Below, one piece after another: positions 40,703-44,375 of a stretch of 64,000 nt of DNA. This stretch comes from an uncultured Nitrospiraceae bacterium. GTDB lineage: Bacteria; Nitrospirota; Nitrospiria; Nitrospirales; Nitrospiraceae. The position numbers were made by a program, and so were the translations under genes. The stretch's first letter is position 1; each line of letters starts with the position of its first letter. The DNA lies in assembly GCA_963846575.1 (NCBI GenBank), contig CAWJWJ010000002.1, positions 608,001-672,000 of the forward strand. The letters are read 5' to 3'. The notes below the pieces were generated by a model. That model did not search any database, was not told the DNA's origin, and worked only from the letters and a program-made list of their open reading frames with translations.

Positions 40703-41146
40703 ATGTCCCTTGTTAGGAAATATCAATTGATCGCTGCCACTGGATTCGTGGTGGCTGCGATCCGAATCGCTTTGCGGATGACGAGTCTTCCGCGACTCTT
40801 AAGGTGGTTGACTTGCAAGGCAGTATCTCGAGGGCACGGTCCACTCGCAATGGAAGATGTTGCATACTACGTTGAACGCTGGCTTGCGCTGGCTCCGTAC
40901 AACTCCAAGGGAAACTGTCTTCCTCGTGCCTTGACTCTATATTGGTTTGCCCGCCGCGCCGGTGTCCCCGTCCAGTTTCAATGCGGTGTGATGAAGATTA
41001 GTGAAGGCATCGAGGGCCATGCCTGGTTGATGCTGGATGGGCGGGAGTTCTTTGAGCCATCACCGTACTGGCGTGACTTCACCGTGACGCTTAGTTTCCC
41101 TCCCATGCCCGTCCCGCGGAATACTCAAGCGTCGAATTCTAAGTAA
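40703..41146 (+). CDS. Lasso-type leader peptidase (B2, transglutaminase-like)
   Basis: NCLPRAL...GVPVQFQCGV...EGHAWLMLDG gives the Cys-His-Asp arrangement of lasso B2 proteins. Confidence 0.88.
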   Translation: MSLVRKYQLIAATGFVVAAIRIALRMTSLPRLLRWLTCKAVSRGHGPLAMEDVAYYVERWLALAPYNSKGNCLPRALTLYWFARRAGVPVQFQCGVMKISEGIEGHAWLMLDGREFFEPSPYWRDFTVTLSFPPMPVPRNTQASNSK

Positions 41147-41479
41147 GAGTCTCACTTTCCCTAGAAGCCTGGCCACGATTTTCCTGCGCCTCTCGTTTTA
41201 GTTCTCCTGTTCCCTGTGACACGATCTGTCTATCCTGAGCCTTCGCACAGATCGATTCAACAATCCATCCAACTGTGTCTTCACTCCGACGGCTCCCCCA
41301 AATGGGAGAGCCACCCCAACCTCACGGGAATAGATAAGGCATGGGTGAGAAAGTATGTTTGCCCTTCGGAGGCGAGGACAACGGCGACGGGCAGTGCTAT
41401 CGCTATGATTGCTGTCGCACCGCCGGGAAGAGCGTTCGCTATAGTAGTCGGTTTCATGGTCGTCGTATCAGGAGGGTGC

Positions 41480-41797
41480 ATGCCTGCCATTACACACGAT
41501 TCGGTTGATCGGATGGTCGAGTTGTCTCACCTTTTTCCAAAGCGAAACGAAGATGTACATAGCACGATGTTGGATGGAGAAAGCGTGTTGCTGAATCTCC
41601 ACACCGGACGCTATTACACCTTGAACGTCGTGGGATCGATTGTGTGGGATTTGTCTACGGGAGATCGGTCGCTCAACGAGGTTGTCGCGACTATCTGCGA
41701 AAAGTTTGATGTTACGGCTCGGCAAGCGCAAGACGATCTGCTTGATCTCGTCGTCGAACTTGATCAGGAAGGGCTCATTCAAACCGAAAGGAGGTGA
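41480..41797 (+). CDS. PqqD-family RiPP recognition element (B1/RRE)
   Basis: LDGESVLLNLHTGRYYTLNVVGSIVWDL...AQDDLLDLVVELDQEGLI; GGAGG RBS. Confidence 0.92.
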   Translation: MPAITHDSVDRMVELSHLFPKRNEDVHSTMLDGESVLLNLHTGRYYTLNVVGSIVWDLSTGDRSLNEVVATICEKFDVTARQAQDDLLDLVVELDQEGLIQTERR

Positions 41798-41802
41798 AGT
41801 AG

Positions 41803-41922
41803 ATGGATCAACAGAAGAAAACCGTTTATGTGAAGCCAACGCTTGTGAAGCACGAGTTGCTGCGCGATGTGACGGCTCTACAGCTTTCCCGCGTGCTCAA
41901 TGGAGAGCATCAGGTAACGTAA
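41803..41922 (+). CDS. Putative RiPP precursor, 39 aa: MDQQKKTVYVKPTLVKHELLRDVTA-LQLSRVLNGEHQVT
   Basis: Too short for the ORF track; RBS AAGGAGGTGA overlaps the RRE stop; leader matches YxxPxL-x9-T-x spacing; followed by a strong hairpin. Confidence 0.85.
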   Translation: MDQQKKTVYVKPTLVKHELLRDVTALQLSRVLNGEHQVT

Positions 41923-41948: not shown

Positions 41949-41983
41949 GGGAGTTGGTCGGTCTTCTCGACCGGCCAGCTCCC
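41949..41983 (+). terminator. Stem-loop after the precursor gene (terminator or mRNA stabiliser)
   Basis: GGGAGTTGGTCGGTC-TTCTC-GACCGGCCAGCTCCC, 15-bp stem including GU pairs, no U-tract. Confidence 0.7.
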
Positions 41984-42036: not shown

Positions 42037-43077
42037 ATGTCGATGACATTGGCAACAAATGAGCTTCTCCTCTCTGTCCATGGCATCGATCTGGTCTTTA
42101 CTACCAATTCTCCAGAGTTGGCGAATTCCGTGGCGGCGTTACTGCGTCATTTCCAATGCCAGGCTGTCAATGCGGACGCCATGCTGATGCAGTTTGATAG
42201 GGTCGAGTGTCGTGAGGACATCCCACTCCAGATTTCGAGCACCGCATCCTTATTGTACAGCGGCTCCGGCCTTATGATTGGGGGCAAGAGGAAGGCAACC
42301 TGGCTATGCGACATTTACTCGGAAGAGGGGAGATTGATCGCAGACTTCCACGAAGAAGGAGTCGTGGTTATCGATGGAACATCGCAATCTGTACTAGGAT
42401 ACCTTGTGCGGCCTGAGCTTATGGCGTCAGATATTCAGGTCAGTTTTGTGCACCTTGCCATGATCGAACTCCTCAAACGGAGAGGTCTATATACCTTTCA
42501 TGCCACGGCACTGGAAAAGAATGGGCGAGGCATCTTGATCCCCGGGTTCAGCGGAAGAGGTAAAACCACCTCGTTCCTATCCCTACTTAGAGCTGGATAT
42601 CGCTATATATCGGACGATCATCCATTCTTTCGACTTGCCGGTGATCGCGTGGAGATTCTGCCTTATCCACTCAAAATTAACGTAACCGAAAGTACCGTGT
42701 CGTACTTTCCCGAATTGCGTGATGCGCCGGCAACCGTTCTGCGCGCCGGTTCGCCTAAACGTTATTTTTACGTTGATGATGTATATCCTGGGCCCTTAGG
42801 AGCACCATGTGACGCAACGATGATTCTATTTCCCGAAATTGCTGACTCCGCTCATAGCTGCTTAGAGCCACTCTCGAAACGGCAATCGTTGGAATTGATC
42901 CTCCCGCATTCATTGCTCGTGTACGATGCACAAGTCGCTCGTCATGAATTTCAAGCGCTCGTTAAGTTGATCGATCAGGCAAGTTGTTACCGGTTGCACT
43001 TTGGGCGCGACGTTCTGGATTTGCCTTGGCTGGTGACGCCGCTCCTGGAGAATCAAACAATGAGGCGCGAGCACTGA
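42037..43077 (+). CDS. HPr-kinase-like P-loop kinase (RiPP tailoring candidate)
   Basis: FHATALEKNGRGILIPGFSGRGKTT and YISDD. Confidence 0.85.
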   Translation: MSMTLATNELLLSVHGIDLVFTTNSPELANSVAALLRHFQCQAVNADAMLMQFDRVECREDIPLQISSTASLLYSGSGLMIGGKRKATWLCDIYSEEGRLIADFHEEGVVVIDGTSQSVLGYLVRPELMASDIQVSFVHLAMIELLKRRGLYTFHATALEKNGRGILIPGFSGRGKTTSFLSLLRAGYRYISDDHPFFRLAGDRVEILPYPLKINVTESTVSYFPELRDAPATVLRAGSPKRYFYVDDVYPGPLGAPCDATMILFPEIADSAHSCLEPLSKRQSLELILPHSLLVYDAQVARHEFQALVKLIDQASCYRLHFGRDVLDLPWLVTPLLENQTMRREH

Positions 43078-43079
43078 GA

Positions 43080-44375
43080 ATGAGGAAACCTCTGCAGCCT
43101 ACGGCAATCCGCCGGAATCGATTTCAGTCAAGGGATAGTTCGCACAGGTGCATGACGCCAAATCCAGTAACATCTCAGATGCATCTGGAAGGTCGGCTCA
43201 TCGTGCTCTGTGCGCGGACGACGATCAATGAGTTTATCCGGGTTGAGGTCGAGGATTTGATCAGTGAGACCATCGATTGGGATCGCGTATGGCGGATGTC
43301 GAGGCAACAGGGAGTGGCGCCACTGGTGTATCGCACCCTGTCCTCCCTTTGCCCTTCGGTGGTACCGTCCCACATCCATAACGCCTTCCGTCGGCACATT
43401 CAGGCCAATACCCTTTTAAACAGTTTGCTTGTCAAAGAGTTAGTGGCCGTGATGGAGGGTTTGGCGGCAAAGGGCATTCGAGCCATTCCCTTCAAAGGCA
43501 TAACGCTCGCCATGACTGCCTATGGGGATCTTAGCCTGCGTGAATGCGCGGACTTGGATTTAATCGTCGAGCAAGGGGCAATCGCTCCGGCCAGGCAGGT
43601 ACTATGGTCCCAGGGTTATCAGCTCACTAGTCAGGATAGAGAACAAGCCAGTGAGAGCGATGAACCCTATCATTTCTTCCAGAAAAAGAACGGCATTATC
43701 GCCGTGGATCTTCAGTGGGTAATGGCCAGAAGCCACTTTTCCTTTCGACTGGACCGGAGCGAATTCTGGGCCAGGCTGAAGCCGGTGCATTTACCGGCAG
43801 GAAGTGTGATGGGCCTTAGCCCGGAAGATCTCCTAATCCTGCTTTGTGTGCATGGATCAAAGCACGCGTGGGAACAGTTAAAGTGGACCTGCGATGTGGC
43901 CGAGTTAGTCCGACGGCGACCGACGTTGGATTGGAGCCGGGTCCTATTTCAGGCGGACGAATGGGGTTGTCGTCGAATGGTGCTCCTGGGCCTGACGATG
44001 GCTAGAAACCTGTTCGGCACTGTGCTGCCAGGTGCTATTCTCCACGAAATTGAAATAGATGCAGATATCCCAACGCTGGTCCGCCACATGCCAAATCAGT
44101 TGCTGAAGGAATCTGATGTGGGCATTGATGAAGGTTGCGCGGATGCCCTGTATATGTCTATCAAGGATGCTTGGCTGGAACGTTGGAAGCTTGCTGCTGC
44201 GCTCTGCCGTGAGGACGCGAGCGTGCTCACCATGTCACTTTCTTGGTTCCGGCTGCAATCAAGGCTTCGGGTATTCTATGCATGCATTCAGCCACTCCAT
44301 CGGATTATCGTTAAGTGCGTGCCCTCCACTCGGATTCGCAAAGCGGTTGTTCGGTGGCTACATAACATTGGCTGA
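43080..44375 (+). CDS. Nucleotidyltransferase of the type found in lasso clusters (NTP_transf_5-like)
   Basis: PFKGITLA, YGDLSLRECADLDLIV, VDLQW, LCVHGSKH..LKWTCD. Confidence 0.85.
   Translation: MRKPLQPTAIRRNRFQSRDSSHRCMTPNPVTSQMHLEGRLIVLCARTTINEFIRVEVEDLISETIDWDRVWRMSRQQGVAPLVYRTLSSLCPSVVPSHIHNAFRRHIQANTLLNSLLVKELVAVMEGLAAKGIRAIPFKGITLAMTAYGDLSLRECADLDLIVEQGAIAPARQVLWSQGYQLTSQDREQASESDEPYHFFQKKNGIIAVDLQWVMARSHFSFRLDRSEFWARLKPVHLPAGSVMGLSPEDLLILLCVHGSKHAWEQLKWTCDVAELVRRRPTLDWSRVLFQADEWGCRRMVLLGLTMARNLFGTVLPGAILHEIEIDADIPTLVRHMPNQLLKESDVGIDEGCADALYMSIKDAWLERWKLAAALCREDASVLTMSLSWFRLQSRLRVFYACIQPLHRIIVKCVPSTRIRKAVVRWLHNIG

Follow-up and report, generated by a model that had tools for sequence, protein, structure and literature searches.

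The closest described systems are the linear polyphosphorylated peptides (LPPs) of Bacillota, for which the main text of a 2026 report describes cyclase-free clusters combining an RRE, an HprK kinase, an NTP transferase, a SipW-like peptidase and MsbA (PMC13381572). In this system LppK polyphosphorylates Ser3 of a linear core, and deletion of the nucleotidyltransferase (NTase) was described there as having no effect in a heterologous host. The accessible text of PMC10368454 describes an RRE-stimulated kinase, BsfK, which also phosphorylates Ser3 and belongs to a cluster that has both B2 and a cyclase. A PsmN-dependent hexose (+162 Da) on phosphoserine, which needs the DxD motif Asp134/Asp136, is reported in the accessible text of PMC6993621. 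Nitrospira is not mentioned in the main text of PMC13381572, the main text of a comparative genomics study of Nitrospirales (PMC12342949) has no match for RRE, RiPP, lasso or antiSMASH, and that of a graspetide survey (PMC8939145) has none for Nitrospira. We found no published description of the Nitrospira clusters in a literature search conducted largely without subscription journals and supplements.

Here we analysed a window of 64,000 nucleotides (the whole stretch of DNA under study) from an uncultured Nitrospiraceae bacterium. A small ORF in it had been read, in a preliminary description, as an unannotated precursor with a lasso-type leader, a non-lasso core and a chemistry different from cyclisation. 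We conclude that it is likely the precursor of a B2-processed, cyclase-free, Ser4-phosphorylated linear peptide that resembles the LPPs. The non-lasso core and the missing cyclase stand, but the different chemistry is less unprecedented than the first reading implied, since the LPPs have been published (PMC13381572).

The precursor gene and its cluster

The ORF at 41803-41922 (+) translates exactly into the 39-aa peptide reported before. The term unannotated holds as far as function is concerned, since no functional name is attached to it, but the ORF itself had been gene-called: the exact 39-aa protein is already in a public protein collection, and its orthologues are entered as 'hypothetical protein'. 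The precursor matches no Pfam or NCBIfam family and no PDB sequence. Its elements are as follows:

41789..41795, + strand, Shine-Dalgarno sequence AGGAGGT, overlapping the last codons and the stop of the RRE gene
41803..41877, + strand, precursor leader of 25 aa, YxxPxLxxHELLRDVTA
41878..41922, + strand, predicted 14-aa core and stop, with a putative cleavage site
41887-41889, + strand, codon of Ser4, the predicted phospho-acceptor

As first described, a strong Shine-Dalgarno sequence is embedded at the stop of the RRE gene. AGGAGG (41789-41794) is made up of the final two Arg codons of the RRE, the TGA (41795-41797) follows directly, and the ATG lies 8 nt downstream of AGGAGG; this layout is also present at precursor-bearing orthologous loci. 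If the peptide is cut after Thr-Ala, the leader has Tyr at -17, Pro at -14, Leu at -12, His at -9, Glu at -8 and Thr at -2. Position -8 of lasso leaders is usually Gly. The lasso-type spacing with Glu replacing Gly was confirmed, and the 14-aa core does start with Leu1, contains Ser4 and has Glu10 as its sole acidic residue. In a six-frame translation of the genome (7.34 million residues), the strict leader pattern [YW]..P.[LIVM]..H[EDQ].{5}T matched once, at this ORF. The looser YxxPxL..T pattern near an ORF end gave 15 matches in the genome, and the loose motif is therefore insufficient alone.

The gene order is purF-B2-RRE-A-kinase-NTase-redoxin, A being the precursor, and the same synteny is found in named Nitrospira records, including N. 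defluvii. The remaining features of the cluster are:

40703..41146, + strand, lasso B2-type leader peptidase (transglutaminase-like cysteine protease; PF13471, NF033537)
41295..41363, + strand, conserved block of non-coding DNA, some 170 nt upstream of where the RRE gene starts, between B2 and the rest of the operon
41480..41797, + strand, discrete RRE of the PqqD / lasso B1 type (PF05402, 62 bits)
41949..41983, + strand, 15-bp GC-rich hairpin without a U-tract, 3' of the precursor (-41.9 kcal/mol, z -3.8)
42037..43077, + strand, HprK-like peptide kinase (His155, Walker A Lys176, Asp193-Asp194)
43152..44375, + strand, NTP_transf_5 nucleotidyltransferase (PF14907, 224 bits; putative start codon)

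The B2 protein scored 69 bits against PF13471 (cut-off 26) and 51 bits against NF033537 (cut-off 33). Its Cys72 and His106 are intact, and the GNC[LF]PR and GHAW motifs are kept in intact orthologues. The kinase matched PF07475 weakly and TIGR04352 and TIGR04355 at about 55 bits, under their cut-offs, and the catalytic set of the NTase consists of Lys115, Asp134-x-Asp136 and Asp186. B2, kinase and NTase are each single-copy in the genome. The best PDB relatives of the RRE were TbiB1, 9x90, TfuB1 and 9x8z. An in-frame upstream extension of the RRE (41216-41479) was rejected as coding because the open frames of most orthologues span about 110 aa, and a second PqqD protein of the genome was rejected as a cluster member, being part of a PQQ operon.

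The interval from purF to the redoxin gene has no gene for a signal peptidase, and the cluster contains no glycosyltransferase, no exporter and no daptide-type dehydrogenase, aminotransferase or methyltransferase. The ABC exporter that belongs to the clusters of other Nitrospiraceae gave no orthologue in the genome (best 29-37% identity), nor in the four further genus genomes searched (28-31% identity; positive control 93%). Two cluster-type ATP-grasp proteins gave no tblastn match in the genome, and the intergenic gaps of the cluster hold no ABC, ATP-grasp or hydroxylase remnants.

Two DNA elements accompany the genes. The conserved block at 41295..41363 was found 5' of the RRE in 25 of the 26 loci tested by motif match and is kept even at loci that lost the precursor; the window copy has a 1-nt deletion, visible only in alignment. 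It is probably an internal promoter or regulator site, and it showed no regulon recurrence genome-wide (best genome score 18.3 vs 19.1 in shuffled sequence). Five orthologous regions of the hairpin were folded and gave z-scores of -2.9 to -3.9. It was not scored as an intrinsic terminator, no terminator was found 3' of the precursor and a sigma-70 scan gave no promoter; the hairpin likely stabilises the precursor mRNA.

Binding of the leader by the neighbouring RRE, for which structure prediction had been proposed as a check, was supported by modelling. The predicted complex of RRE and precursor scored 0.67 vs 0.25 for the best control. Of 157 solved complexes, 116 attain the mark used for this score, as do 2 of 215 mismatched pairs; complexes like the RRE-leader pair have been solved, and a pass therefore shows likeness, not binding. 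At least 80% of the contacts were common to runs, and partner pLDDT was at least 57. In the model, leader residues 6-17 touch RRE residues 43-52 and helix 82-97, and the Tyr-Tyr strand of the RRE pairs with the leader. The invariant RRE residues Asn49 and Asp86 have the same 37-residue spacing as Asn33 and Asp70 of LppB, which are described in the main text of PMC13381572 as holding the Pro kink and the Tyr of the leader.

Conservation, selection and natural losses

An RRE match, weak in some cases, was found in 33 of 39 genus genomes. Among 30 orthologous genus loci, 25 carry a precursor after the RRE, 4 do not and 1 is disrupted, so the ORF is conserved beside orthologous RREs, as the preliminary description had asked. 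These 25 loci hold 34 intact precursors, with two copies in 9 of them, and orthologous loci also occur in named records titled Nitrospira or Nitrospiraceae. Ser4, previously named as a candidate phospho-acceptor, is present in 34/34 of these precursors and Arg5 in 33/34. Core length ranges from 8 to 14 aa, and the tail varies in both length and sequence.

The pN/pS was 0.076 for leader positions -17 to -1, 0.23 for core positions 1-6 and 0.90 for core positions 7-12 (34 precursors; pooled pairwise and uncorrected values from pairs that are not independent). Selection therefore acts on the leader and on the region around Ser4 but not on the tail: the leader is under strong purifying selection, the tail past residue 6 is almost neutral, and the ORF at 41803-41922 is a real, selected precursor gene.

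In the window and at nearly all precursor-bearing loci, the three enzymes have intact catalytic residues (B2 Cys72/His106; kinase His155/Lys176/Asp193-Asp194; NTase Lys115/Asp134/Asp136/Asp186), with the exception of locus L032, where B2 is frameshifted, and L103, where the second NTase is divergent. Loci L037-L040 keep only the RRE and the NTase of the cluster, as open frames. The kinase was not found in any of the four genomes, and B2 and precursor were not found in the two tested; three of the four genomes are 84-89% complete and one is a single contig. In these NTases Lys115, Asp136 and Asp186 are all replaced, and the Tyr-Tyr leader strand of the RRE is lost or altered. A second kind of loss was seen at L118 and L120, where the kinase stands alone between purF and the redoxin gene, with an intact frame in both genomes:

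L118:7950-8960, lone kinase
L120:7726-8736, lone kinase

This kinase has His155 replaced by Tyr and the Walker Lys176 by Arg, and no precursor was found at either locus in a search with two positive controls. Catalytic residues of the orphaned kinase or NTase have thus been lost where the precursor was lost, which ties both enzymes to the precursor; these natural controls represent about two evolutionary events, not six, both in the same direction. As a separate observation, the degraded RRE and NTase of L037-L040 may represent a repurposed pseudo-enzyme.

Proposed pathway and competing explanations

Alongside the conservation, the selection, the absence of a cyclase and the joint loss of precursor and enzyme active sites observed in this analysis, we propose, with a probability of roughly 65%, that the cyclase-free five-gene cluster converts the precursor into a short linear peptide phosphorylated on Ser4, whose phosphate is probably capped and which is freed by B2. 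The RRE would bind the YxxPxL leader, as modelled, and present the bound precursor to the HprK-like kinase, which may place one or more phosphates on Ser4; we infer this site because the Ser is invariant and because LppK and BsfK act on Ser3. The NTP_transf_5 enzyme would then decorate the phosphoserine, most likely with a hexose by analogy with PsmN. This is the weakest step of the proposal, and capping is uncertain even in the LPP precedent because of the silent NTase deletion. Finally, a B2 cut after Thr-Ala would release a ringless core of 8-14 residues, xQLS(P)R[VI] followed by the variable tail.

An unlikely variant retains the linear Ser4 peptide and has the NTase add an NMP or X-phosphate unit to Ser4 or phospho-Ser4, in the manner of ANT/LnuA- or FKRP/LicD-like enzymes. 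The NTase model (pLDDT 89) has a Pol-beta-like fold, and the NTase alignment gave no PDB sequence match. Its nearest solved folds are the NMP transferases MenT1 (the nearest; Z 14.5, rmsd 3.3, 181 aligned residues), ANT(2'') (Z 12.7, rmsd 3.4, 164 aligned) and LnuA (Z 11.1, rmsd 3.6, 148 aligned), together with FKRP (Z 8.1, rmsd 3.7, 149 aligned), which transfers ribitol-phosphate from CDP-ribitol. However, these matches are 10-21% identical, which is not proof of function, and the fold does not choose between hexose capping and nucleotidylation. The lack of a glycosyltransferase and of an exporter in the cluster also fits an NMP or X-phosphate transfer, and with no linked exporter a nucleotidylated or phosphodiester-linked product would possibly be intracellular. 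Against it, PsmN, the only PF14907-type enzyme with a product reported in the literature consulted, gives a +162 Da hexose on the phosphate (PMC6993621).

In another reading, the cluster would be a decaying remnant, without functional product, of the larger purF-site cluster of other Nitrospiraceae that includes an exporter, two ATP-grasps and a fatty-acid hydroxylase. Site and gene order are indeed shared, with the additional genes lying in the B2-RRE gap at L101, L107 and L119, decay is seen in relatives (L037-L041, L088, L118 and L120), and the exporter is missing from the lineage. We nevertheless consider this very unlikely, given the intact active-site residues in the window and at the intact precursor-bearing loci, the purifying selection on leader and core positions 1-6, a separate clade of 13 Ser4 kinases (SH-aLRT 100 in a quick tree) and gaps that hold no relic of the additional genes.

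A lasso peptide cyclised in trans by an asparagine-synthetase-like protein of the genome (Leu1-Glu10 here, Ile1-Asp8 in many orthologues) is largely refuted, and we leave it a very slim chance. Lasso features are present, namely the YxxPxL leader in full register with Thr at -2, the RRE and the B2 protease, Asp8 occurs in 12/34 orthologues, and the genome encodes seven full-length asparagine-synthetase homologues. However, all seven start with Cys-Gly (the glutaminase motif), score above the TIGR01536 cut-off and reach 158-349 bits against NF033535, whose cut-off is 525, and all adjoin polysaccharide-type genes as judged by eye. No NF033535 cyclase above cut-off was found in any of the 39 genus genomes, and the asparagine-synthetase C-terminal domain was found in none of 80 metagenome loci (full 6-kb flanks in 22) and none of 39 larger genome loci. 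The second lasso feature that is missing, besides the macrolactam cyclase, is a conserved Asp/Glu at core positions 7-9 with a threadable tail. An acid occupies these positions in 14/34 genus cores, with just 1-4 residues beyond it, which are too few to thread, and a further 14/34 cores contain no acid anywhere, so that moving the cleavage site does not restore a ring. The consistent D/E at 7-9 that would have contradicted the preliminary description is thus absent; its lasso-type leader on a non-lasso core and its missing cyclase were both upheld, and a role of Glu10, present in 1/34 orthologues, was not supported.

Least probable of all is chemistry at the C-terminal Thr (paeninodin-like terminal phosphorylation or a daptide-type conversion) or at Asn8-Gly9, both of which the preliminary description had singled out: the window core has a terminal Thr and an Asn-Gly pair, 10/34 cores end in Ser or Thr, and the paeninodin and pseudomycoidin kinases act on a C-terminal Ser, but a terminal Thr and Asn8-Gly9 are each found in 2/34 orthologues, in a tail with a pN/pS of 0.90, and the cluster has no daptide-type dehydrogenase, aminotransferase or methyltransferase.

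Related clusters in Nitrospiraceae and comparison with known systems

A search with the kinase alignment gave matches at E<=1e-10 in 38 of 301 phylum genomes: the genome of the window, 31 of 60 other family genomes (nearly all very strong) and six weak matches outside the family; 196 distant relatives of the kinase were found at E<=1e-30. In other Nitrospiraceae a pattern search returned 31 precursors (22 with Ser3, 3 with Ser4 and 6 with Tyr3 and no Ser4), whose leader invariance is partly built in by the search pattern and whose core counts are unaffected by it. Manual reading added eight precursors that the pattern had not matched; five belong to the Ser3, Ser4 or Tyr3 classes, and the three at L119 do not, having neither Ser nor Tyr at core positions 3-4. 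An HMM census of the 80 metagenome loci yielded 95 distinct complete precursors (46 Ser3, 37 Ser4, 10 Tyr3 and 2 other), 31 of which have D/E at core 7-9.

At the purF site of other Nitrospiraceae the same leader is accompanied by an ABC exporter, a pair of ATP-grasp proteins and a member of the fatty-acid-hydroxylase family, and at L101, L107 and L119 the additional genes sit exactly in the B2-RRE gap. The exporter is present in both Ser3 and Tyr3 clusters of these bacteria, and the ATP-grasp genes occur only beside Tyr3-type and related cores. Cores at ATP-grasp loci are rich in Lys, Asp and Glu and mostly start with xKY[RK][ED]; in metagenomes, Tyr3 cores were seen at 8 loci, 7 of which also gave an ATP-grasp match, the remaining locus being 2.7 kb long. 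In a quick unrooted tree of 34 family kinases and 12 distant ones, the Ser4 (13 rows, SH-aLRT 100), Ser3 (13 rows, 99) and Tyr3 (4 rows, 95) kinases formed separate groups; kin share labels, and the tree is therefore no evidence of co-evolution.

Several of these clusters have further particularities. Tyr3 or related cores with two ATP-grasps and an exporter were seen at L101:3029-10418, L103:3762-12398, L107, L119, L154, L178, L179, L189, L196 and L201, together with one or two fatty-acid-hydroxylase-family proteins, which at L119 are replaced by a GMC oxidoreductase pair; these may be phosphotyrosine-graspetide hybrids. One genome carries two near-identical, inverted Ser3-type clusters (L102:874-4363 and L102:16295-19786) on either side of some 12 kb of genes unrelated to them. 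At L104, L108, L110, L112 and L115, where the Ser3-type cluster is not at the purF site, a gene for a PhoD-family alkaline phosphatase (an assignment checked with Pfam at L104) is found within 1-3 kb of it, which makes a link to phosphate handling possible. Finally, Ser3 and ATP-grasp clusters stand in tandem in single genomes at L103, L109 and L113. With their 2-3 RREs and nearly identical leaders, these offer a natural setting for the question of leader discrimination posed in the main text of PMC13381572.

As a tentative wider idea, which we hold to be doubtful but worth stating, the near-invariant lasso-derived leader YxxPxLxxHELLRD[VI]T[AG] may serve in Nitrospiraceae as a common platform into which three cyclase-free chemistries are plugged, a separate clade of kinases serving each. 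If so, these would be Ser4 phosphopeptides without an exporter, as in the window, Ser3 phosphopeptides that are rich in Gly and exported, and Tyr3 cores that have a hydroxylase and two ATP-grasp ligases as neighbours. With a tyrosine kinase of HprK fold, the Tyr3 type would then yield a phosphotyrosine-graspetide hybrid processed by B2 and RRE, and the window product would be an intracellular phospho-nucleotidyl or phospho-glycosyl peptide rather than a secreted antibiotic.

The locus indicates lasso B1/B2 leader processing without a cyclase in a Gram-negative phylum, and points to a peptide pathway conserved in Nitrospira, nitrifying bacteria with a major part in nitrite oxidation and complete ammonia oxidation. 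It bears on the structure of the finished LPP-type peptides, on their role and on the function of the PF14907 nucleotidyltransferases. With a minimal set of five genes, a 14-residue core, one candidate Ser and natural loss controls, it is an easy system in which to address the kinase-NTase product question.

Graspetides have an ATP-grasp ligase that acts on a Ser/Thr/Lys and Asp/Glu-rich core, and the window genome gave no tblastn match to the two cluster-type ATP-grasp proteins. Daptides, as far as the accessible text of bioRxiv 10.1101/2025.07.11.664356 describes them, are also RRE-dependent linear RiPPs, and the window core ends in Thr; the C-terminal Thr, invariant in daptides, is limited to 2/34 orthologues and the cluster has no DapB/C/D/M-type genes. 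Paeninodin and pseudomycoidin (PadeK, PsmK, PsmN; accessible text of PMC6993621) share an HprK-like kinase, an uncharacterised NTP transferase and B1/B2 with the window, and PsmN and the window NTase have the DxD motif Asp134/Asp136 in common, whereas the lasso ring and the modification of a C-terminal Ser are not conserved in the window family.

The Bsf system of Bradymonadales, a phosphorylated lasso type (accessible text of PMC10368454), resembles the window in its Gram-negative host, split B1/B2, RRE-stimulated HprK-like kinase, N-terminal core Ser and N gene. By visual inspection of the bsfA gene as printed there, the Bsf leader also has His at -9, and in other Nitrospiraceae the Ser3 type matches the Bsf register exactly. 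Bsf has a cyclase C, Gly1, Asp8, Ile at -2 and a transporter D, whereas the window has Thr at -2, Ser at position 4 and neither a cyclase nor a conserved acid.

The LPP cluster of Paenibacillus alginolyticus (lppA-K-B-S-D-N; main text of PMC13381572) comes closest. Like the window, it has no macrolactam cyclase and combines a stand-alone RRE, an HprK-like kinase and an NTP transferase, and its leader, YxxPxVLxHQxIxFETxxS, places Tyr, Pro, His, Gln/Glu and Thr in the register of the window leader. In both families an N-terminal Ser is conserved, the tail is variable and a cluster has one to three precursors. The Ser lies at Thr+5 in the window (core position 4) and at Thr+3 in the LPPs, which are cut directly after Thr (Ser3), and cores are 8-14 aa long in the window family as opposed to 45 aa in LppA. 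The leader peptidase is a lasso B2 cysteine protease in the window and a SipW-type signal peptidase in the LPPs, which also have an MsbA-like exporter in the cluster, whereas the window lineage has none. The window cluster lies beside purF in Nitrospirota, the LPP cluster in a capsule locus in Bacillota. Without two LPP features (peptidase type and exporter) and two lasso features (cyclase and ring acid), the cluster, judged by its genes, would still work like an LPP system.
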